Shown one piece after another: positions 30,486-41,664 of a DNA stretch of 64,000 nt. This DNA comes from Clostridia bacterium (GTDB lineage: Bacteria > Bacillota > Clostridia > Oscillospirales > CAG-272), in assembly GCA_900767415.1 (NCBI GenBank), contig CAAFYZ010000028.1:22987-86986 (forward strand), read 5' to 3'. How positions within the stretch are numbered: the first letter of the stretch is position 1; each line of letters starts with the position of its first letter. Made by a program: the position numbers and the translations under genes. Under the pieces are notes generated by a model, which was given only the letters and a program-made list of their open reading frames with translations, had not been told where the DNA came from and did not search any database.

Positions 30486-30627
30486 TCCGTTTTCCGATTC
30501 CTTTCTTGGTTACTGTTCCTCATTTTTCCCCGAAACGCCTGCCTTATACGGAAAAGGAAAAAGAAGGAGACGCTTTTTCTCCATTTGTAAATGTTTCGCG
30601 AACCGCGGAAAAACTCTCGCTATGCGG

Positions 30628-30657
30628 TTGACAACTCTCCCGCGCGTGTGCTATAAT
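30628..30657 (+). promoter_or_regulatory. promoter of the LRR/HprK-like/PqqD operon
   Basis: TTGACA, 18 nt, TGc-TATAAT. Confidence 0.6.
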
Positions 30658-30695
30658 CAGTAAGGTAAAATCAAAGCCGAACGAAAGGACAGGAT

Positions 30696-33674
30696 ATGAA
30701 AAAAGAGGTGACCGCAGAACAGAAGGTATCGAAAGAGCCGAGAGAAGCGAAAAAACCGAAGAAGCCCCTCTCCCGCAAAGGGAAGATCGTTCTTTTCGCG
30801 GTGCTGATTGCCGCACTGCTTGCCGCCCTCGGTGTCGGTTTGTACTTTCTTTTGCGCGACGGGGAAAAACCCGCACCCGCCCCGACCGTTTTCTATACGG
30901 ACGAGTATCGCTATTCTTTTCGCGAGGACGGCTCCGTGCGCATCGTCGCATACCTCGGACGCGATCAGGAAGTGACGATCCCTGCCACCATCGACGGCAG
31001 GGCGGTCAGTGCCATCGGCACGCAGGCGTTCGCCTCTTCCTCCGTGCGGAAGATCACGCTCGGTTCTTTTCTTCGCGAGATCGGCGACTTCGCCTTTTCC
31101 GGTGCGTCCCTCCGCACCGTGGTGACGGACGACGTGCCGTTGCGCTCGCTCGGCGAGGGGGCGTTTTACGGCTGTCAGTCGCTCACCGCGATCACCCTGC
31201 CCGACACGATCACGTCCTTCGGCGACGGCGTGTTCGCGTATTGCACTTCGCTTGAGGAGATCGCGCTTCCCGACGGGATGACGTCGATCCCCGCCCACTT
31301 TTTTGAAAACTCCGGGATCAAAGATATGAGTCTCCCCGCCACCGTTTCCGCGATCGGAGACTCCGCTTTTTACGGTTGCATCGATTTGAAAAAGGTCGTA
31401 CTGCCCGCCGCCTGCACCTCGCTCGGCAAACAGGCGTTTTACGGGTGCAAGACGCTTGAGAGCGCGGATCTTTCTTCCGTCCGTTCGATCGGGGAAAACG
31501 CTTTTCTCCTTTGCGACGCACTTGCCGAATTCCGCCTTGCGGAAGACAACCCCGCCTTCGCTCTCGTGAGCGGTGCGCTGATCGATCGGGAGCGGGGGAT
31601 CGTCCTTCGCCTGCCGGGCAAGGGGACGACCACGACCCTGACGCTTCCGTCCTATGTCCGTGCGATCGCGCCCTATGCCTTCTCCGAATGTACGACGCTG
31701 ATCGCCGTCAATCTGCCCGATACCCTGACCGAGATCGGCACGTATGCGTTTTACGGCTGTACCTCTCTTTCGTCGGTGAACATTCCGTCGGCGGTCCGCG
31801 AGATCGGCGCGCTCGCCTTTATCGGTACGCCCTATTATCGGGGGCTTACCGATGAGTTTACGGTGGTCGGCGACGGAATTCTTCTGCGTTACACGCCGCA
31901 AAAGGATGCCGGCGGCACCCTGGTCGCGACGGCACACGCCACCCCCGTCCTCTCGGAGACGACGGGGAAGCCGATCGGCGTTTCGGTGACGCTCCCCGAC
32001 GGGATCCGCACCGTTTCCTCCGCTTTTTATAACACGCTCGACGCGGTGTCCGTCCGTGTACCGGAAGGGGTTACCTCCCTTTCCGCGTATGCGTTCGCGT
32101 CTTCCGTCTACCTCTCCTCCCTGACTCTGCCGTCGACTCTGACTTCGATTGGGGAGAACGCGTTCGATTCCTGCTCCCTTCTTTCGGAGGTCCGTCTTCC
32201 CGCCGCCCTTTCTTCGCTCGGCGGATATGCCTTTCTGAACTGCGTTTCGCTGACCTCGGTGAGTGTACCCGGTACCGTCGCCGAGCTTTCCCCCTATACC
32301 TTCTCCGGCTGTACCCGCCTTTCTTCCGTTACGCTGGAAGAGGGCGTGCGTCGGGTCGGCGCGTATGCTTTTTCCGAAGACGGTGCCCTTACCGAAATTT
32401 CTTTCCCGTCGACGCTGACCTCTCTCGGTGAGGGAGCGTTCCTCGCCTGCGGCTTCACTTCCTTTACCGTTCCCGACAGCGTTACCGAGGTCGGAACGAA
32501 TCTTCTCGCCGCCTGTGCTTCGCTTACCTCTCTCACCCTCGGAAAAGGGCTCTCCGCCGTTCCTTACGGCATCTGCCGCGATGCGACCGCACTGACTTCG
32601 GTTCTGATTCCCGAGGGATATATCTCCGTCGGACAGAGCGCGTTTTACGGTTGCACCGCTCTGACCTCCGTCCGCCTGCCGGACAGCGTTACCGAGGTGT
32701 CGAGTGCCGCTTATTACGGGTGTACGAAACTGACGGAGTTTCGGGCGGACAAACTCGTGAGCATCGGCGTCGAAGTTTTTCGCGGTGATGTCGCCCTTGA
32801 GAACTTCCGCCTTCCCGCCACGCTCCGCACCGTCGGGATGCAGGCGTTCTACGGTTGCAAAGCATGGAAAGATCCTGATCTTTCCCGCCTGACCGAGGTC
32901 GGGAAACAGGCGTTTTACGGTTGCGACGGCATCCGTACCGCCGACGTTTCGGGCATCGGACAGTACCTGCCCGAAGGCATCTTCGCCTCCTGCGAAGGAT
33001 TGGAAGACATTCGCTTCCCGAAGGAACTTACGCATATCGGTTACGGTGCCTTTACCAACTGCACCGCCTTGCAGAGCATCACTCTCCCGCAGCATCTGTG
33101 CAGTATCGGCGGCAGTGCCTTCGTCGGTTGCGTCTCGCTCTCCGACATCACATGGAACAAAGAACTCGTCACCGTCGGCGAGAGCGCCTTCGCCTTCGCC
33201 AACTCCCTGCGGGAAGTCCATCTTCCGAACGGCGTCAGAACCGTCGGGAAGAAGGCGTTCCAGAACTCCGACTCTCTTCTGATCGTCACCCTGCCGGACA
33301 GCGTGGAGACGGTCGGGAGTGCCGCCTTTTCGGACTGCCCCAGACTGTTCGGCGTTACACTGCCGAAAACGCTCACCGAGCTTGCCGACAACCTGTTCGC
33401 CGGCTGCGTCGACCTTACCCGACTGACGATTCCCGACACCGTCGAGACGATCGGTTCTTCCGCGTTTGACGGGTGCGAGTCTCTCTCTTCGGTCACACTG
33501 CCTCTTTCCCTGAATTATGTGAAAAAAAGTGCTTTCAACGCCTGTGCCGAGACGCTGACCGTCTCTTACGGCGGCACAGCCGACCGCCTTCTTGCCGCGT
33601 ATGTCGAAGAGGACGGCAACATCCTGCTGATCAACGCGATTCTTACGTTCGCGGAGAAGGAGGGGGCATCATGA
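30696..33674 (+). CDS. BspA-type (LRR_5) leucine-rich-repeat membrane/surface protein
   Basis: Lys-rich cytoplasmic N-terminus, one TM (IVLFAVLIAALLAALGVGLYFLL), then many ~23-aa repeats of the form I-G-x-x-AF-x-GC-x-x-L-x-x-I-x-LP. No LPXTG or SLH anchor. Confidence 0.88.
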   Translation: MKKEVTAEQKVSKEPREAKKPKKPLSRKGKIVLFAVLIAALLAALGVGLYFLLRDGEKPAPAPTVFYTDEYRYSFREDGSVRIVAYLGRDQEVTIPATIDGRAVSAIGTQAFASSSVRKITLGSFLREIGDFAFSGASLRTVVTDDVPLRSLGEGAFYGCQSLTAITLPDTITSFGDGVFAYCTSLEEIALPDGMTSIPAHFFENSGIKDMSLPATVSAIGDSAFYGCIDLKKVVLPAACTSLGKQAFYGCKTLESADLSSVRSIGENAFLLCDALAEFRLAEDNPAFALVSGALIDRERGIVLRLPGKGTTTTLTLPSYVRAIAPYAFSECTTLIAVNLPDTLTEIGTYAFYGCTSLSSVNIPSAVREIGALAFIGTPYYRGLTDEFTVVGDGILLRYTPQKDAGGTLVATAHATPVLSETTGKPIGVSVTLPDGIRTVSSAFYNTLDAVSVRVPEGVTSLSAYAFASSVYLSSLTLPSTLTSIGENAFDSCSLLSEVRLPAALSSLGGYAFLNCVSLTSVSVPGTVAELSPYTFSGCTRLSSVTLEEGVRRVGAYAFSEDGALTEISFPSTLTSLGEGAFLACGFTSFTVPDSVTEVGTNLLAACASLTSLTLGKGLSAVPYGICRDATALTSVLIPEGYISVGQSAFYGCTALTSVRLPDSVTEVSSAAYYGCTKLTEFRADKLVSIGVEVFRGDVALENFRLPATLRTVGMQAFYGCKAWKDPDLSRLTEVGKQAFYGCDGIRTADVSGIGQYLPEGIFASCEGLEDIRFPKELTHIGYGAFTNCTALQSITLPQHLCSIGGSAFVGCVSLSDITWNKELVTVGESAFAFANSLREVHLPNGVRTVGKKAFQNSDSLLIVTLPDSVETVGSAAFSDCPRLFGVTLPKTLTELADNLFAGCVDLTRLTIPDTVETIGSSAFDGCESLSSVTLPLSLNYVKKSAFNACAETLTVSYGGTADRLLAAYVEEDGNILLINAILTFAEKEGAS

Positions 33675-34417
33675 TGACGATCGGAATCGCCGGTTTGCCG
33701 ATCGGGATCGATAACCGTTATCCCTATCTGACGAACCTTTGTGAGGACTATCTGACGGACGAGCCGCCGCTCTTCACCGTCCGTGCGGACGACGACGAGA
33801 TCCGCGAGGAATCCCGCGTTTCCGGAATTCGGGACCCCGGCTGTCTCGAAAGCACCGTGGTCTATCGCGCCATCGCGCGGAAATTGCCTTATTACGACGC
33901 TCTTGTCTTTCACGGCGCCGTTCTTGCCGCGGAGGGCGGCGCGTATGCCTTCACCGCGAAGAGCGGGACGGGGAAGACCACGCACCTTCGTCTCTGGCTC
34001 TCCGAGTTCGGGGACAAGGTTCATATTCTGAACGGAGACAAGCCGATTCTTCGTTTCATCGACGGCACGCTGTATGCCGCGGGGACGCCGTGGAGAGGGA
34101 AAGAGAATTACGGAAGACGCGAGATGCTCCCCCTCCGTGCGATCACCTTCCTCTCCCGAGGAGAGGAGAACCGTATGACAGCCGCCACCCCTTCCGATAT
34201 GCTCTTTTCCTTCTTCGGACAGATTTTCCTGCCCGAAGAACAGGAGGCGACGGAGCGGACGCTCGCTTTGTCCGAGCGGATTCTCACGGAGACAAAACTT
34301 TTTCGTCTCTTCTGCAACATGGACCCCGAGGCGGCGCACGTCGCGCGGCGCGCACTGGAAGACGGGTGCATCGGAGAAATATCGGAGAAAACACAGGAAA
34401 AGGAGTCAAAAGCATGA
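33671..34417 (+). CDS. HPr-kinase-C-terminal-like P-loop protein (HprK-related, RiPP-accessory type)
   Basis: ATG 33671 overlaps the LRR stop (ATGA). FHGAVLA..GGAYAFTAKSGTGKTTH..NGDKP..GTPW pattern as in HprK-related kinases. Confidence 0.7.
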   Translation: MMTIGIAGLPIGIDNRYPYLTNLCEDYLTDEPPLFTVRADDDEIREESRVSGIRDPGCLESTVVYRAIARKLPYYDALVFHGAVLAAEGGAYAFTAKSGTGKTTHLRLWLSEFGDKVHILNGDKPILRFIDGTLYAAGTPWRGKENYGRREMLPLRAITFLSRGEENRMTAATPSDMLFSFFGQIFLPEEQEATERTLALSERILTETKLFRLFCNMDPEAAHVARRALEDGCIGEISEKTQEKESKA

Positions 34418-34686
34418 AAATCATTGACGGATTCGTCGTCCGCACCGTGGCAGGGAAATGCGTTGCCGTCGCGGTGGGAAAAGAAGCGCGCCGCGTCGGC
34501 GCGATGATCTCGCTGAACGAGGCGGGAAAGGACATTTTCGAACTTTTGCAAAAAGAAGATCTGACCGAGGAAGAAGTGGCACGCCGCCTCTCAAAGATTT
34601 ATGACGCCCCTTACGACACGCTTCTTTCCGATACGAAAGAATTTGTCGCAAAACTGCGCGAGGCGGGCGCTCTCGCGGAAAACTGA
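34414..34686 (+). CDS. PqqD-family protein (RiPP recognition element-like)
   Basis: ATG 34414 overlaps the upstream stop (ATGA). 90 aa: MKIIDGFVVRTVAGKCVAV...ISLNEAGKDIFELL...EEVARRLSKIYDAPYDTLLSDTKEFVAKLREAGAL, the typical PqqD pattern. Confidence 0.8.
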   Translation: MKIIDGFVVRTVAGKCVAVAVGKEARRVGAMISLNEAGKDIFELLQKEDLTEEEVARRLSKIYDAPYDTLLSDTKEFVAKLREAGALAEN

Positions 34687-34724
34687 AAAAGCAAATCAAA
34701 AAGAAGGAAAGATAGATTACCGTT

Positions 34725-36137
34725 ATGAACAGATCCTATGACATCGTTATCGTCGGCGCAGGTCCTGCCGGCATTTTCACCGCGATCGAGATGCTTCGCC
34801 GCGGCACCGAAAAGAAGATCCTGATCGTCGAAAAGGGGAAGGCGATCGAAAAGCGCGTCTGCCCCAAAGTGAAAACCAAAAAGTGCATGAACTGCAAGCC
34901 CTGTCACATCACGACGGGATTCTCGGGTGCCGGCGCATTCTCGGACGGCAAACTCTCGCTCTGCGAAGAGGTCGGCGGCGATCTGCCGAGTCTCATCGGC
35001 GCGGAGTACGCCAAGAAGATGATCGACTACACCGACTCCATCTACCTTGAGTTCGGTGCCGATACCCATATCGAAGGACTGGAGCACGAAGAGGAGAAGA
35101 AGGAGATCCGCCGCAATGCCATTAAGGCGGGGCTGAAACTCGTCGACTGCCCGATCCGCCACCTCGGCACGGAAAAGGCGCAGGAGATCTATTACGCCAT
35201 CGAGCAGTATCTTCTGAAGGGCGGGGTCGAGATTCTCTTCGATACCGAGTGCCGCGATCTGCTCATTACCGAAGACGAGGTCTGCCGCGGTATCGTCATC
35301 GCTACCAAGGACGGCGAAGAACGGATTGAGGCGGAAGAGGTTATCGTCGCGACCGGACGCCGCGGCGCGGAATGGCTGGAGAAACTCTGCGCCGAGCACC
35401 ACATCGCCCATCAGCCGGGCACCGTCGATATCGGCGTGCGCGTCGAAGTGCGTAACGAGATCATGGAGAAGATCAACACCGTCCTCTATGAGTCAAAACT
35501 CGTCGGACACCCTGCTCCCTTCAAGAACAAGGTGCGCACCTTCTGTCAGAACCCCGGCGGCTTCGTCAGCCAGGAGAACTACGACCACGGACTTGCCGTC
35601 GTCAACGGACATTCCTACAAGGATTTGAAGAGCAGTAACACGAACCTTGCGATTCTCGTCTCGCACAACTTCTCCACCCCCTTCAATCAGCCGATCGAAT
35701 ATGCGCAGAAGGTCGGTGAACTTACCAATATGCTCGGCGCCGGGCATATCCTCGTTCAGCGGTTCGGCGATATTCTGGACGGGAAACGCACCTGGCCGAA
35801 AGAACTTGCCGAGTCGAACGTCCGTCCCACCCTTCCCGATGCGGAGGCGGGCGACATCACGGCGGCGATGCCTTACCGCGCCATGATGAATATCATCAAC
35901 TTTATCAAAGCGGTCGATCACGTCGTCCCCGGCTTTGCGTCTTATGAGACGCTTCTGTATTCTCCCGAGCTGAAATTCTATTCCAACCGGGTGAAAATGG
36001 ACGAGAACTTTACCACCAGCGTCAGAGGTCTGCATTGTCTCGGCGACTCTTCGGGCTGGACACGCGGTCTGATGATGGCGTCCGTCATGGGTGTCATCAT
36101 GGGAAGAAAACTCATGGAAAAGGAGCAGGGGAAGTGA
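34725..36137 (+). CDS. FAD-dependent oxidoreductase (COG2509-type)
   Basis: DIVIVGAGPAGIF dinucleotide-binding start, Cys cluster CPKVKTKKCMNCKPC, GDSSGWTRG near the C-terminus. Confidence 0.82.
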   Translation: MNRSYDIVIVGAGPAGIFTAIEMLRRGTEKKILIVEKGKAIEKRVCPKVKTKKCMNCKPCHITTGFSGAGAFSDGKLSLCEEVGGDLPSLIGAEYAKKMIDYTDSIYLEFGADTHIEGLEHEEEKKEIRRNAIKAGLKLVDCPIRHLGTEKAQEIYYAIEQYLLKGGVEILFDTECRDLLITEDEVCRGIVIATKDGEERIEAEEVIVATGRRGAEWLEKLCAEHHIAHQPGTVDIGVRVEVRNEIMEKINTVLYESKLVGHPAPFKNKVRTFCQNPGGFVSQENYDHGLAVVNGHSYKDLKSSNTNLAILVSHNFSTPFNQPIEYAQKVGELTNMLGAGHILVQRFGDILDGKRTWPKELAESNVRPTLPDAEAGDITAAMPYRAMMNIINFIKAVDHVVPGFASYETLLYSPELKFYSNRVKMDENFTTSVRGLHCLGDSSGWTRGLMMASVMGVIMGRKLMEKEQGK

Positions 36138-36198
36138 GTGTTGCGCATGTGCGCGCGCCCCTCTTCCGTTGCCCTTCGGACGGCGGGGCGGATGCCGT

Positions 36199-36945
36199 AT
36201 GATGTGCGACGATGAGATCCGTCGGAATTTTGCCGCGGCGCGCCTTCTCTGCCTTTCGCAACTTCCCGCGCATGACGGCGGGATCGGCACGCTCGGGGAG
36301 AAGATACAGCACAGGATTCTGAAATATACCTTCGCACCGGACGACACCTGCCATGAGATCCCCTATCTCGGCAGTGTCGCGGATATTAAAAACGAAGAGG
36401 GAATTTTCGAGATTCAGACCCGCTCATTCGGCAGTCTTGTGCCGAAACTTGAAAAATTCCTGCCGAAAACCCGCGTTACCGTCGTCTATCCTCTCCCGCA
36501 TGAAAAAGTGCTTCATAACGTGGATCCCGTGAGCGGTGAGATTGGAAAAGGGCGGAAAAGTCCGAAGAAATGTAAAGTATACGATGCATTTTGGGAACTT
36601 TATCGCATTCGTCCCTTTCTTTCTCATCCGAATTTTCGTCTGATTCTCGCCTTTTTCGACGTTGACGAATACCGAAAAAAGACGTCGCGCACCCGCCGCG
36701 GCAGTGAGCGGGTCGAGCGGATTCCCGCCCGCTTTTGCGGGACGGTCTCCCTTGCGGGGAAAGAGGATTACGCGCGTGTCTTTCTGCCTGCGACGCTTGC
36801 CGACCCCTTCACCGTAAAAGCGTATGCGAAAGAGACGGGCATCGCCCCGCGGTATGCCGCCCTCGGCATTTCGATTCTTTCCTCTCTCGGGATTCTTTCC
36901 CACGACGGAAAAGAGGGAAGAGCATACCTTTACCGTAAACTCTGA
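36199..36945 (+). CDS. hypothetical protein, possible RecB/Cas4-like PD-(D/E)xK fold
   Basis: G-TLGEKIQHRILKY ... VADIKNEEGIFEIQTRS motif order resembles nuclease motifs I-III. Start uncertain (ATG 36199 or 36202). Followed by terminator 36951-36987. Confidence 0.55.
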   Translation: MMCDDEIRRNFAAARLLCLSQLPAHDGGIGTLGEKIQHRILKYTFAPDDTCHEIPYLGSVADIKNEEGIFEIQTRSFGSLVPKLEKFLPKTRVTVVYPLPHEKVLHNVDPVSGEIGKGRKSPKKCKVYDAFWELYRIRPFLSHPNFRLILAFFDVDEYRKKTSRTRRGSERVERIPARFCGTVSLAGKEDYARVFLPATLADPFTVKAYAKETGIAPRYAALGISILSSLGILSHDGKEGRAYLYRKL

Positions 36946-36950
36946 ACGCA

Positions 36951-36987
36951 AAAAGCCCTGCGCCAAAGACGCAGGGCTTTTGCTTTG
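36951..36987. terminator. terminator closing the LRR operon (convergent with the ARH gene)
   Basis: AAAAGCCCTGCG-ccaaaga-CGCAGGGCTTTT. Confidence 0.8.
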
Positions 36988-37006
36988 TCGATTCGGTTTT
37001 TTCGGT

Positions 37007-38464
37007 TTACCCGATCATGACGACCGGAACATATCCCGCGGTAAAGCGATCTTCTGCCGTGATTTCGAGCACGGCGCGGTTTACCGCCGCGACGGTCTCG
37101 CCGGCGTGAAGGGTGAATTCCGTCTCCGCCATGGCGGGGTCATGCGCGTTGAAGTGCGGGAGACGAAGGGCGCGGGAGCCGCCTGAGACGGTGAATCCGT
37201 CGGGGAGGAACCAGCGCAACTTCAGATTGTACGGTGCGTTGCCGTAGTCTCTCCAGTTGTTGCGGACGATGAGTTTGACCTTCACTTCGCCGCCGGGCGT
37301 GATGTCGGGCGTCGTCTCATAGATCAGGGTCGCCGACGCGTAGGCGAAATCGACGGTAAAAGAGAAGGGAAGAAGGTGACGGAGCCGTTCTTTTGTCTCC
37401 GTACCTTTCGACAGCTTTGCGGGTGCGTCGGCGGGGATCTCGCTCTCGCCATCCGTGAGCCATATATCCGCATGGTTTGCCGCGAGCAACAGGGGGGTCT
37501 GATGAGCCACTCTGTCGGTCAGCTGGGCGCAGGTTGTCGGCAGACCGTAGAGAAGACCGCGATTGATGGAGATGGTGACGATCGACTCGCCGATATGGGC
37601 TTTCCAGTCGTCGGGGATTCCTGCCATGCCGCCGAGGATGCCGAGCGTCGCGCCCACCGTCGCACCCGTGCAGTCGGTGTCGTCGCCGCAGTTGATTGCC
37701 GTAATCATGGACTTTTTGAAATCGCCTTCGCCGAAAAGAAGACCGAGGACGGTATATGCCACGTTCGAGGGGGCTTCAAACCAGCCGTCGCCGATATCCG
37801 CATTCAGCTTCAGTATGAGATCGCGCGTCTCACGCGGCGTCTTTTTGCCTTCGTAACACTCGATGACAAAGCGCACGCTCCTCGCGACGCGGCTCTCTTC
37901 GGGGATCTTGGTCAGCGCGATGTCGATGGCTTCTCTGGCAGTCTTCACGACATAGGCGGAAGACTGCATGGCGGCGACAAACGCCGCGGCAATCGTGCCT
38001 TCGCCTGCACCGTGGTCGACCGTTGCGTCCTCGATCGCGTACTTCACCGCAATATCGGGTGCGCCGGGGGCGAGAGATGCCCAGATCTCGGTACGGATCC
38101 ACGCACCGTTCGAGTGCCGCCACGTGTTGCGATAATCTCCCGAAAGGGGCGGGAACATCCCGAGCCGCATATTCGTTTTTCCGATGCCGTATTCGTTCCA
38201 GTACGGGACGATATAACTCAGCCAGAATTCGCCGAGATCCGCGGCGGTGAGACGGTAAGGACCGCGCGCTTCTAGGGCGGAGAGCCAGACGAGCTGAAGA
38301 TCGAGGTCGTCGTTCGGGAGCACGACGCTCGCGTCGGTCACAAACCCTTTGATGTCGAGATATTCCCGCCCGCCTTCATAAGGCGTACCCATGGTTCCGC
38401 CGATATTTTTTCCGATCCATGCGGCATGGAGCTTGTCGCGATAGAGGTTTTGATTCAGTTTCAT
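37007..38464 (-). CDS. ADP-ribosylglycohydrolase family protein with C-terminal beta-rich extension
   Basis: GKNIGGTMGTPYEG, DDLDLQL, INCGDDTDCTGATVGATLG motifs of the ARH/DraG family; about 150 extra C-terminal residues. Confidence 0.88.
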   Translation of the reverse strand: MKLNQNLYRDKLHAAWIGKNIGGTMGTPYEGGREYLDIKGFVTDASVVLPNDDLDLQLVWLSALEARGPYRLTAADLGEFWLSYIVPYWNEYGIGKTNMRLGMFPPLSGDYRNTWRHSNGAWIRTEIWASLAPGAPDIAVKYAIEDATVDHGAGEGTIAAAFVAAMQSSAYVVKTAREAIDIALTKIPEESRVARSVRFVIECYEGKKTPRETRDLILKLNADIGDGWFEAPSNVAYTVLGLLFGEGDFKKSMITAINCGDDTDCTGATVGATLGILGGMAGIPDDWKAHIGESIVTISINRGLLYGLPTTCAQLTDRVAHQTPLLLAANHADIWLTDGESEIPADAPAKLSKGTETKERLRHLLPFSFTVDFAYASATLIYETTPDITPGGEVKVKLIVRNNWRDYGNAPYNLKLRWFLPDGFTVSGGSRALRLPHFNAHDPAMAETEFTLHAGETVAAVNRAVLEITAEDRFTAGYVPVVMIG

Positions 38465-38535
38465 GATGAGGTATCCTTCCTTTCACGCCTTTCGGCAGGA
38501 AAAGTCTTTTGAGCCGAAAGTGTTGTGCTGTCTTT

Positions 38536-38564
38536 ATTATAGAGGACGGCGGGAACGGTTGCAA
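38536..38564 (-). promoter_or_regulatory. promoter of the ADP-ribosylglycohydrolase gene
   Basis: Minus strand TTGCAA, 17 nt, TATAAT. Confidence 0.55.
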
Positions 38565-38629
38565 GCACTTTTTTCTACTTTTTGGTGTCAGATTTTTACA
38601 TCTTCGAAAGTAAGAAGGTGAAATTACCC

Positions 38630-38658
38630 TTGACAGTGAAAGAACATTGTGCTATTAT
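38630..38658 (+). promoter_or_regulatory. promoter of the exonuclease-HNH islet gene
   Basis: TTGACA, 17 nt, TGc-TATTAT. GTGAAAT at 38618-38624 lies just upstream of the -35. Confidence 0.6.
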
Positions 38659-38720
38659 CGACTTGTAAAGTTTTTATCAATATCTAAGGCAAAAGATCAT
38701 ACAAACGAGGGGCGTCAATA

Positions 38721-40271
38721 ATGTTAAGCAATCAGAAGGTTAAAAAAATTAAATTTGAAGATGCTTTGAAGTATTTAGATCATAAAAATATTACTAATGA
38801 AACTGATATTGTCAGATTGGAATGTTGTTGTGATATATTGCAATTAGATAGTATTATTAGAAAATACAAGTTAAAATTATGGTCTGATTATCAACCTGTT
38901 TGCGGCAGTCTTCTCCCATACGGCTATTGGACATGGGCGGGGCCAAGTTCTGACGATGGTTCATATGTTTATTATGTGGCAAAGTCGAATGCTTATGGAC
39001 ATATGAAATATCTTTATTGTATGGATAATGTATATATGTTTTTTACTGTTGCAAGCAATAAAAGTCCTAAAATTGATTTTCTTTTTGATACTTACCGATA
39101 TGATGTGAATGATATTTTTATCGACATAGAAACAACAGGATTGAATCCAATTGTTGATGATATTTTAAGTATTGGACTTTATCAACTTTCTACCGGCAAA
39201 ACTTTTCATAAATACCTTCCTCTCGAAAAGCAAAAAAATATTCCAAAAGAAATCACCGATATAAATGGAATAACAGAAAAAGACTTGATAAATTCAACCG
39301 CATTGACACAAAAAGATATTGATGAAATTATTAAAGTTTTTCAAATAGGCGAAAATCGATTAACCATGTGGGTCGGAAAAAACTTATTTGATGCGGCGTT
39401 TTTAACCTGCTATTTTAGAGAACACAATTTAACAGATTATGGAAAATTTTTATTTCAAAACGCAACAGAATTTGCAAAACTGTATTTAACGCCATATAAT
39501 GTTCGCGATTTTTCAAAGGATCATGTAGCGAAAATGTTTCTGCTTGATCTGCCGGAACATCATGGCGCATTATCTGATTGTAAAACGGAAGCGCAAATAT
39601 GCGAAAAAATTCATAGTGAGACTGTACCAGTAGTACCAAATGTGGGATTCATATGTAGCGAATTGAAAAAAAGTTATATTGTAATGACGAAGGAAAGGGC
39701 TTTTGAATTATATGAAACAATGTGTTTATATTGCAAAGTGATATATGGTAAAGTGAATCAAGATTATGATGATCACCCAAGAACAAGAGGGGCTGAAAAC
39801 ATAGATATCCATCATATTGACGAATTAACTTTAGATAATATTGCAATAAGAACAAACCGCGCACAAAAAGAGGGGGATATTAAGGAACTTGAAAGATTGA
39901 AACCGTATAATAAAAAAGAGCGTCTTGTCTATGCAGACAAGGAAGACCACTTTCTCCTTCATTGTTTGATTGAAAAAATTAGACCCGGGTTGGGGGGTGG
40001 ACCTCATTATTTATATGCTTATATAATCAATCAAAACATGCCATATATTGAAATGCTTCGAGAAATATATGTAAATCTTATTTGTTTTCAAGATCTTGAT
40101 ATAGAGAGCATATATCCTTTTTGGGAAACCGTCTTTCAACAACACAATTTCGATTTTTCAAAATTGCAAAAAGAAAAAGAGACAATTAAAGTTTTGCTTG
40201 ATGAATCGAAAAGTCAAATGCAAGCAAATGAGCGGAAAATTTTCAACGATCTAAATTGCAATATTGACTAG
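38721..40271 (+). CDS. fusion protein: unassigned N-domain + DEDDh (DnaQ-like) 3'-5' exonuclease + HNH-like module
   Basis: ExoI FIDIETTG (D135/E137), ExoII NLFDAAFL (D224), ExoIII HHGALSD (H281/D286). CLYC(335-338)...IDIHHID(361-367)...N373/N379...DHFLLH(409-414). AT-rich codon usage; own promoter and terminator. Confidence 0.8.
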   Translation: MLSNQKVKKIKFEDALKYLDHKNITNETDIVRLECCCDILQLDSIIRKYKLKLWSDYQPVCGSLLPYGYWTWAGPSSDDGSYVYYVAKSNAYGHMKYLYCMDNVYMFFTVASNKSPKIDFLFDTYRYDVNDIFIDIETTGLNPIVDDILSIGLYQLSTGKTFHKYLPLEKQKNIPKEITDINGITEKDLINSTALTQKDIDEIIKVFQIGENRLTMWVGKNLFDAAFLTCYFREHNLTDYGKFLFQNATEFAKLYLTPYNVRDFSKDHVAKMFLLDLPEHHGALSDCKTEAQICEKIHSETVPVVPNVGFICSELKKSYIVMTKERAFELYETMCLYCKVIYGKVNQDYDDHPRTRGAENIDIHHIDELTLDNIAIRTNRAQKEGDIKELERLKPYNKKERLVYADKEDHFLLHCLIEKIRPGLGGGPHYLYAYIINQNMPYIEMLREIYVNLICFQDLDIESIYPFWETVFQQHNFDFSKLQKEKETIKVLLDESKSQMQANERKIFNDLNCNID

Positions 40272-40412
40272 AATCTCTTGGATACAAAATATAACGTCTT
40301 GAAATATAAAATCTCCTAGAGAAGGCCGTAATCGGTTTCCATAAGGTCTTCCTCAAAAATGGTGAGACAAAGAAACTCACCATTCAGGATGCCGAGTGAT
40401 ATCCCAAGTGAC

Positions 40413-40539: not shown

Positions 40540-41664
40540 ATGACGGATCCACAGACTTCGGCGCTGATCGGCGCCATTCTTTCGCTCGGTACGCCGGAGG
40601 AGTGCAAGGCGTTTCTTACCGACCTTTGTACGGTAAAAGAGATTGACGAGTTTTCCGCCCGGCTGGAAGTTGCCCGACTTCTGAGCAGCGGCGTCAACTA
40701 TCACGACATCGTGGAACGCACGGGAGCATCGACTGCCACCATCAGCCGTGTCTCCAAGGCACTCTCCGGCTCGTCGGGCGGCTATCGCACCGCCCTCTCC
40801 CGCCTCGGAATGCCGCGGGTGCGCGACGGCGTGCCGACGGACAAACTGCCGCTTCTCCCATCGGAGCGGGCGGCGTATTCTCTGATGGCGCATTTTGAAG
40901 AGCGGGGCTATCACCGCTATGCGCGTTCCACCTTCCCGGAAGGCGCGGAAAAAGAGACGCTCGGCGATGTCACACTCTCCCTTATCGACACGGTGCCCAC
41001 GGCACCCGGCACGTATAAGTATTGCTACTTTGAGAACCTTCTCCGCCCGGATGAAAAACGGCGGCTTTTGCGTCGCATCTCGCAGACGGGGATCGAATGT
41101 ATCGGCAACGTCACGGGAGAAGAGGAGAAGGAAGTCCTCTCTCTTGCCGCCGTCGCGCTGTCTTTGCTTGCCGGGAAGTTCGAGATTTCCGTAGCGCCGC
41201 TCGCATATTCCGACGCACTTTTTGCCCGTTACGGGATTTACGGCACCTATCGCAGGGAGGCATATCGTCTTTTGCGCACGTCCCCTGCCGAATTGCGCGA
41301 CTTTCTCCTTACCAAAGGAGAGGAAAAGAGGAGCGCGGACGCCGTCGCCGATCTTTTATGCGTCAAGCGAAAGGCAGACGAAGGGCTTTCCGAGATGCGC
41401 TTTTTCGCCGCGAGCGATGCGGAGCGGTCGGCGTGCGAGGAGTTGCGCACGGCTCTTTCGGGGATCACGAGCGGGAATCTGACGATAGATTTTACCCTGA
41501 CGCCCGGTATGGAGTATTACGACGATCTTTTCTTCGTCGGACGCACGGGGCGCACGACGGAGGTGCTCCGCGGCGGACGCTATGACGCGCTGATGCGCCG
41601 CCGCGGACACGACGGCGGTGCCGTCGGCTTCGCCGTTTATCTCGATGCTCTGACAAAAAAATAA
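40540..41664 (+). CDS. YerC/YecD (TrpR-like) HTH fused to HisZ/HisRS-like class-II core
   Basis: Res 1-90 closely resemble B. subtilis YerC (CTVKEIDEFSARLEVARLL...TGASTATISRV). Res ~105-374 align by eye to HisZ (QTGIECIG, MEYYDDLFF, GGRYDALM, GFAVYLDAL). Confidence 0.8.
   Translation: MTDPQTSALIGAILSLGTPEECKAFLTDLCTVKEIDEFSARLEVARLLSSGVNYHDIVERTGASTATISRVSKALSGSSGGYRTALSRLGMPRVRDGVPTDKLPLLPSERAAYSLMAHFEERGYHRYARSTFPEGAEKETLGDVTLSLIDTVPTAPGTYKYCYFENLLRPDEKRRLLRRISQTGIECIGNVTGEEEKEVLSLAAVALSLLAGKFEISVAPLAYSDALFARYGIYGTYRREAYRLLRTSPAELRDFLLTKGEEKRSADAVADLLCVKRKADEGLSEMRFFAASDAERSACEELRTALSGITSGNLTIDFTLTPGMEYYDDLFFVGRTGRTTEVLRGGRYDALMRRRGHDGGAVGFAVYLDALTKK

Follow-up and report, generated by a model that had tools for sequence, protein, structure and literature searches.

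The SynChlorMet (SCM) cassette comprises ScmC (TIGR04249/PF27840), the PqqD-like protein ScmD and the radical S-adenosylmethionine (radical-SAM)/SPASM proteins ScmE and ScmF. To our knowledge, the TIGRFAM text on this cassette names no precursor. A second point of comparison is provided by the lasso peptide clusters of Firmicutes (for example, that of paeninodin with the kinase PadeK and that of pseudomycoidin with a kinase and the nucleotidyltransferase PsmN), in which an HprK-like kinase phosphorylates a serine of the precursor (PMC7533575). Here we describe a gene pair that resembles parts of both and that lies in a 64-kb stretch of contig CAAFYZ010000028.1 of a Clostridia bacterium (this whole stretch is referred to below as the window). 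The pair encodes an ScmC-family P-loop protein (gene 2) and a PqqD-family recognition element (RRE; gene 3) for peptides that are made on the ribosome and modified after translation (RiPPs), and directly follows a gene for a large leucine-rich-repeat (LRR) surface protein (gene 1). An earlier note on this DNA, made from the letters alone, had proposed an RRE-guided modification of the N-terminal tail of the LRR protein, that is, a use of an RRE outside RiPP biosynthesis. The pair is instead a RiPP module without its former neighbours, because the same two genes occur in RiPP clusters elsewhere and the window ScmC keeps all the residues that are invariant in its counterparts there. We propose, at what we judge to be about even chances, that the two genes are an orphaned, still-selected pair that works in trans, on a precursor whose gene lies elsewhere.

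A probable ScmC-family protein paired with a PqqD-type RRE

Features are numbered on the whole stretch and lie on the + strand unless stated otherwise. Gene 2 (33671–34417, with its ATG at 33671) encodes a 248-amino-acid protein that does carry, at the residues reported earlier, the motifs AKSGTGKTT (96–104), NGDKP (121–125) and GTPW (138–141), most of which are invariant or nearly so in the family; the elements that define a phosphoenolpyruvate carboxykinase (PEPCK)-like fold (FHG at 80–82, SGTGKTT at 98–104 and NGDKP at 121–125) are all present and likewise largely invariant or near-invariant. The earlier description of this protein as HprK-like holds for its fold and fails for its sequence. 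Searches against Pfam, NCBIfam and PDB sequence profiles gave no match even at E = 10, the profile check proposed with Hpr_kinase_C (PF07475) and the HprK-related kinases A and B came out negative (no match at E ≤ 10), and a profile of 31 gene 2 sequences retrieved no HprK from the PDB. By contrast, the AlphaFold2 (AF2) model is confident (mean predicted local distance difference test (pLDDT) 93, predicted TM-score (pTM) 0.88; built on a 31-sequence alignment), and the Foldseek matches listed for it against the PDB are solely PEPCK and the C-terminal domain of HprK/P (E 5e-6 to 7e-4, probability 0.98–1.00, TM-score 0.3–0.55). We therefore consider the HprK likeness of gene 2 to be real at the level of the fold.

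Membership of the ScmC family is suggested by a precomputed Pfam label, PF27840, which is faint for the window protein and stands as PF27840.1 on many of its close homologues. The ScmC model TIGR04249 does not match window gene 2 at all and finds homologues at E 5e-5 to 8e-5, below its cut-off (22 bits against 125); homologues also show weak matches confined to the P-loop (Hpr_kinase_C at E 1e-3 in P0138; HprK_rel_A at E 0.01–0.02 in L070/P0135). The family is large, with 10,094 representatives (50% clustering, E ≤ 1e-3), among which the ScmC domain is found fused to PqqD, NTP_transf_5, Peptidase_S24 and Y_phosphatase3. Gene 2 can be described as a putative ATP-dependent phosphotransferase that modifies peptides.

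The identification of gene 3 (34414–34686, 90 amino acids) as a PqqD-type RRE stands: it scores 51.1 bits against PF05402 (E 1.7e-13), well above the gathering cut-off of 23.4, and covers 64 of the 67 profile positions. It shares 35% identity (E 1e-12) with its counterpart in a complete RiPP cluster (L084; see below) and also has a weak lasso-PqqD match. Both genes evolve under constraint. The ratio of non-synonymous to synonymous substitution rates (dN/dS) is 0.15 for gene 2 and 0.09–0.16 for gene 3 in comparisons with relatives at dS ~0.6–1.0, and such purifying selection indicates that neither is a decaying pseudogene.

RiPP clusters in other Clostridia and the parts missing from the window

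Outside the clade of the window, 22 loci carry ScmC (among them those of Faecalibacterium gallinarum JCM 17207 and Clostridiales bacterium CHKCI001), none with an upstream LRR gene, and PqqD follows ScmC in 11 of them. Compared loci are labelled L plus a number; three (L091–L093) were found starting from precursors. The common order is ScmC, PqqD, a peptidase of ~150 amino acids, one or two precursors, a radical-SAM/SPASM protein of ~470 amino acids, NTP_transf_5 and an ATP-binding cassette (ABC) exporter, in which the peptidase is S24-like according to Pfam and similar to SipW/archaeal signal peptidase I according to NCBIfam, both under cut-off. Complete or related clusters are L070 (8001–13021), L081 (8001–15710), L091–L093, L046, L055, L072, L084 and L086. 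The run from ScmC through PqqD, peptidase and precursor to a ~470-amino-acid Radical_SAM protein is seen in L046, L055, L070 and L081, three of which also have NTP_transf_5; the Radical_SAM protein of L070 is StsB/ScmE-like (NCBIfam), and L081 additionally has an ABC exporter and a GT4 glycosyltransferase. L072 and L084 have ABC-2/Wzt_C exporters instead of a radical-SAM gene. In three further distant loci (L058, L066 and L077), the gene directly adjoining ScmC encodes an intramembrane protease of the Rce1-like (CPBP) type, which takes the position of PqqD and the S24-like peptidase.

The precursors were uncovered by a search for conserved small open reading frames (ORFs), followed by a hidden Markov model (HMM) of their leader. 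They share the leader consensus xYEK(A/P)xxE(V/I)xxFxxxDVI(T/A)(T/A)SG (for example, YEKAxAEVxxFDNSDVITTSG) and have variable cores. Against the leader HMM, 11 ORFs in nine loci reach E values between 2e-13 and 4e-11; all other matches, wherever they lie, have E > 5. A database search with the precursor alignment returned 414 clusters, most with cores that contain two or three cysteines; those listed are named 'hypothetical protein' at most and have no Pfam label, and no NCBIfam model matched the leader family. When the search was anchored on precursors instead of ScmC, all three of those followed up (L091–L093, chosen for their long contigs) were found in the same cluster order, that is, ScmC, PqqD, a 149–154-amino-acid protein, one or more precursors, Radical_SAM, NTP_transf_5 and ABC. 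Our searches of the searchable literature found no description of an ScmC–PqqD–radical-SAM cassette, and this set of genes, which lies outside the window, appears to be an undescribed but coherent RiPP cluster family of gut Clostridia.

The window protein is a close counterpart of the ScmC proteins embedded in these clusters. Identity is 37–48%, and every residue that is invariant among the cluster-embedded proteins is kept (H81, G99, G101, K102, T104, H105, W109, NGDKP, R128, GTPW, G143, E145, N167 and Q184). The remaining parts are missing. The leader HMM, run over all 64 kb in six frames, gave no match below E = 50; no radical-SAM homologue was detected in the 64 kb (tblastn E > 0.09; HMM search), nor was an S24-like peptidase, NTP_transf_5, ABC-2/Wzt, Wzz/BY-kinase (bacterial tyrosine kinase) or Rce1-like protease (tblastn and HMM). 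The genes from ~29.2 to 44 kb carry no core-enzyme label (Pfam and precomputed annotation), lasso cyclase and B2 protease not having been profile-searched across the whole window. The earlier report that precursor and RiPP core enzyme are lacking thus extends to the full 64 kb, and the re-scan that it had called for yielded no leader-type ORF: the leader motif is absent from the small ORFs in 30486–30695, and the spacer at 34687–34724 (38 nt) is too short for a peptide gene.

Of the systems already described, SCM is the nearest. Gene 2 belongs to a family that carries the ScmC label and whose members weakly match TIGR04249, a PqqD-like gene adjoins it, and the complete Clostridial relatives have one or two ScmE-like radical-SAM/SPASM genes. 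The differences are that window gene 2 itself has no TIGR04249 match, that the adjacent radical-SAM/SPASM genes present in L046, L055, L070, L081 and L091–L093 are absent from the window, and that the clusters of Clostridia contain, beyond the SCM parts, a peptidase similar to SipW, NTP_transf_5, an ABC exporter and a precursor family that can be identified. The HprK-like kinases of lasso clusters are similar in that a P-loop protein of HprK fold lies by a PqqD-type RRE (B1), often accompanied by a nucleotidyltransferase of the NTP_transf type and by an ABC exporter; gene 2 homologues are correspondingly fused or adjacent to NTP_transf_5 and PqqD. Unlike lasso clusters, the ScmC loci examined showed neither a lasso cyclase nor a B2 protease in their vicinity, their peptidase is S24/SipW-like, their core enzyme is a radical-SAM protein, and gene 2 matches neither Hpr_kinase_C nor the HprK-related kinases A and B. 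The radical-SAM/SPASM thioether RiPPs (sactipeptides and ranthipeptides) resemble the complete relatives, which have precursors with cysteines, an RRE, an exporter and a radical-SAM/SPASM maturase similar to StsB/ScmE; the leader family of the relatives has no NCBIfam or Pfam model, however, and the window has no cysteine-containing precursor, maturase or exporter. By analogy, the orphaned, LRR-coupled ScmC/PqqD pair would act in the manner of the lasso pairs of HprK-type kinase and RRE, without being HprK by sequence.

The LRR junction and competing explanations

The pair is embedded in a block of five co-directional genes whose coordinates, as given by the earlier note, proved correct. A sigma-70-type promoter (30628–30657; TTGACA-18-TATAAT with an extended -10 TG) matches the consensus at 12 of 12 positions, is the best-scoring site in a consensus scan of 28–40 kb and lies upstream of gene 1 (30696–33674). 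Genes 1 and 2 overlap as ATGA (33671–33674), as do genes 2 and 3 (34414–34417), and each coupled start has its own Shine–Dalgarno sequence 7–8 nt upstream (GGAGG for gene 2, AAGGAG for gene 3). A spacer of 38 nt precedes gene 4 (34725–36137), which encodes a flavin adenine dinucleotide (FAD) protein and is followed by gene 5 (36199–36945). The intrinsic terminator that closes the block (36948–36990) consists of a GC-rich, imperfect hairpin of ~14 pairs with a 7-nt loop (36948–36983) and a U-rich tract (UUUUGCUUUG); at -23 kcal/mol (z = -4.0), the hairpin is more stable than all shuffled versions (0 of 200 equally stable), and it is not among the sites listed by a consensus terminator scan. Terminator-like matches are no more frequent than expected from shuffles (15 seen against 16.2 expected over the whole scanned region) and show no excess inside the block, in agreement with the earlier reading that no terminator intervenes. 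A single transcript of all five genes is plausible on these signals.

Gene 1 encodes the 992-amino-acid LRR_5/BspA-type surface protein that had been described, with eight LRR_5 stretches (PF13306, E 1.2e-178; Pfam) that reach to the C terminus, a Lys-rich N terminus of 30 amino acids and a single hydrophobic span (residues 31–53), and its dN/dS against close relatives is 0.18–0.21. Its eight LRR_5 stretches and a partial match to the HupY/LrrG-like model of NCBIfam liken it to BspA-type adhesins; the score (242 bits) is, however, far short of the 1250-bit equivalog cut-off, and the protein lacks LPXTG and SLH anchors, being attached instead by an N-terminal signal-anchor or, in orthologues, by a lipobox. 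A lipoprotein-type signal replaces the signal-anchor in the orthologues of L001 (...AIGC), L028 (...ATGC) and L059 (...LSGC), which indicates that the mode of surface attachment switches within the clade. An 854-amino-acid, Arg/Gly-rich ORF runs antisense through the LRR gene (30657–33221, - strand) and looks like a by-product of GC-rich repeat sequence, not a gene.

For comparison across related genomes, one genome per GTDB species was considered (461 found, best 80 fetched). About 63 of the 80 loci share the backbone of the window (cytidylate kinase on the - strand, YjeF on the + strand and an SLH/Big_9 protein on the - strand), and in 58 loci an LRR_5 gene lies directly upstream of gene 2, with a stop-to-start gap of mostly -4, -8, -1 or +1 nt. 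In five clade loci, gene 2 comes immediately after the SLH gene and no LRR gene is present. L090 shares the backbone and lacks both the LRR gene and gene 2, which identifies the LRR/gene 2 block as an insert in a conserved backbone. The gene that follows ScmC varies: it is PqqD in eight loci, a Wzz-domain gene in ~40 (the commonest case, +0.7 kb from gene 2) and, in others, the FAD gene or DUF8091 directly. Of the linkage that the earlier note expected to be conserved, the junction between the LRR gene and gene 2 thus stood, whereas PqqD, present in 8 of ~63 clade loci, did not.

These distributions bear directly on the explanation first offered, in which PqqD binds the Lys-rich cytoplasmic tail of the LRR protein so that ScmC can phosphorylate this tail or modify it in another way, and translational coupling fixes the stoichiometry. 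The ATGA overlaps at both junctions, the tight LRR–ScmC junction in 58 related loci and the occurrence of both a long Lys-rich tail and PqqD in the window and its closest relatives (L004–L006) speak in its favour, and we nonetheless regard it as very unlikely. In most LRR orthologues that share the junction, 3–10 residues precede the hydrophobic segment, and several carry a lipoprotein-type signal instead, the long tail being found only in the window, in its closest relatives and in a small number of other loci; the presence of PqqD is unrelated to tail length (L030 and L051 combine PqqD with a short tail); ScmC is kept without an LRR gene in the five clade loci, as it is in each of the 22 distant ones; the leader HMM is silent on every LRR ORF; and genes 2 and 3 each have a Shine–Dalgarno sequence of their own. 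A variable downstream gene, a dispensable LRR gene, an inserted block and an unconserved tail therefore leave tail modification without comparative support. The idea of a non-RiPP use of the RRE fares no better, given that in the distant loci ScmC and PqqD belong to RiPP clusters of the ordinary kind, which include precursors and radical-SAM maturases. The synteny within the clade fits selection for co-expression and plain inheritance alike and cannot separate the two.

A different possibility, which we consider unlikely but worth weighing, is that ScmC was recruited to a cell-envelope role together with the LRR protein and a BY-kinase, with PqqD as a leftover in a few lineages. ScmC motifs are intact in the ~63 clade loci, none of which has a peptidase, radical-SAM gene or NTP_transf_5 within +/-8 kb, and the Wzz-domain gene directly downstream of ScmC in ~40 loci encodes, at least in L060 (8739–10316), a complete BY-kinase, in which a MinD-like P-loop is combined with a Tyr cluster at the C terminus (the copy in L003 looks degenerate). 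Separate Wzz/BY-kinase genes also lie directly upstream of the complete clusters in the Faecalibacterium-type loci L055 and L081, and ABC-2/Wzt_C exporters are found in L072 and L084. Against such recruitment, the window has no BY-kinase (a Wzz-like protein, being absent, was rejected as a partner of the pair), its PqqD is under purifying selection, and the invariant residues are the same as in RiPP-embedded ScmC, so that nothing points to a new substrate; moreover, adjacency within one clade may be inherited synteny, and L090 shows the block to be an insert in a conserved backbone. In a broader form, ScmC may have been captured clade-wide into the LRR operon and exapted to modify a protein or envelope component in place of a small peptide, while RRE, peptidase, radical-SAM enzyme and precursor disappeared from the locus and the window would be an intermediate that keeps PqqD; this would apply to at least 58 species-level genomes with an LRR protein of ~1000 amino acids and, in most, a BY-kinase after ScmC, and we think it rather improbable. 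Finally, genes 2 and 3 might be non-functional remains of a RiPP cluster that was deleted, carried along merely by their position within the LRR transcription unit; the missing cluster parts in the 64 kb and the loss of PqqD in most sister genomes speak for this. Both frames are intact, however, all family-invariant residues are present, dN/dS is 0.09–0.16 over dS ~0.6–1.0 and ScmC is retained in dozens of species-level genomes at 45–58% identity, and we give this explanation very little credence.

We favour, at the even chances stated above, an orphaned and still-selected RRE/phosphotransferase pair that is expressed from the LRR promoter and acts in trans. PqqD would bind the YxxP/AxxE...DVIxTS-type leader of a precursor whose gene lies in another part of the genome and hand this precursor to ScmC, which would modify the core with ATP, most likely by phosphorylation of Ser or Thr because of the HprK/PEPCK fold and P-loop, the fusions to phosphatase and NTP_transf_5 domains, and the analogy with the kinases and nucleotidyltransferases of Firmicutes lasso clusters. 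Overlap with the LRR gene would let the ScmC/PqqD pair ride a strong promoter, that is, a linkage of expression and not a relation of enzyme and substrate. In the LRR clade itself, stand-alone precursor-like ORFs with the same leader and Cys-free cores occur in L034 (16352–16483, - strand; ..PPHIFGKSSSTDAL) and L060 (12046–12213, - strand; ..PPYIIGGSGSNGQTY), 4–8 kb from gene 2 with no maturase nearby and next to a pseudouridine synthase gene (in L060 also dapA and dapB), which indicates that dispersed systems exist in the clade of the window.

Several observations weigh against the orphaned pair. No precursor for this genome was found within the 64 kb searched. We know of no demonstrated activity for any ScmC-family member and found none in the literature, and the kinase chemistry suggested for ScmC is drawn from fold, motifs and analogy. 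PqqD has been lost from ~55 of the 63 related loci in which ScmC is retained, implying that ScmC mostly works without a dedicated RRE or works otherwise, and the preservation of the LRR–ScmC junction in ~58 species-level genomes is above what is expected of an accidental neighbour.

Neighbouring genes and implications

The two remaining genes of the block appear not to be part of a five-gene functional unit. Gene 4, which encodes a COG2509-like FAD protein of 470 amino acids (FAD-depend_C and FAD_binding_2; Pfam), has a dN/dS of 0.02–0.03. Its copies in the vicinity of gene 2 across the clade are 83–98% identical and lie at varying distance from gene 2; it was not detected in the remaining clade loci and is probably a conserved neighbour outside the ScmC/PqqD module. 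Gene 5 encodes a DUF8091 protein of 248 amino acids (PF26351, a precomputed label; our Pfam and PADLOC searches gave no match), for which a RecB/Cas4-like nuclease fold had been suggested. Its AF2 model (pLDDT 92.6) has an N-terminal alpha-beta-beta-beta-alpha-beta core, on which the conserved residues lie (D62-x8-E71-x-Q73 and K83), and a C-terminal winged helix. Foldseek returned nothing at E ≤ 1e-3 and weak winged-helix matches alone (DpnI at rank 36, probability 0.14), and the fold search does not support the suggestion; the core would fit a BglII/DpnI-like variant of the PD-(D/E)XK fold, with no significant structural match. DUF8091 has 523 homologues in many unrelated contexts and occurs without gene 2 in L089, L090 and 80 of 80 metagenome loci anchored on it (a scan that struck other lineages). 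We thus rejected gene 5 as a member of the system and regard DUF8091 as conserved backbone, untied to gene 2.

Beyond the block, a 485-amino-acid ADP-ribosylglycohydrolase with a C-terminal extension of ~200 amino acids (37007–38464, - strand) converges on the terminator and is also present in the close relative L004; PADLOC defence models match neither this protein nor genes 2, 3 and 5. It is followed by a low-GC island (38500–40300; GC 0.31–0.35 against ~0.58) with many promoter-like sites and a single 516-amino-acid gene (38721–40271) with an exonuclease domain of the DEDDh/RNase_T type at its centre (PADLOC model DEDDh, E 6e-16). The island was probably acquired horizontally and may be defence-related. 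Further downstream (40540–41664) is a 374-amino-acid protein with a Trp_repressor-like N-terminal domain and a tRNA-synt_His (HisZ-like) domain (precomputed Pfam labels).

What had the appearance of an RRE acting on a surface protein thus receives the more ordinary explanation of an orphaned RiPP module. The comparison also ties the 10,094 representatives of the ScmC family to a concrete cluster architecture and to a recognizable precursor family (414 clusters), and this precursor family provides defined candidate substrates for ScmC. The persistence of ScmC alone with an LRR gene across a clade raises the question of whether RiPP tailoring enzymes can outlive their clusters.

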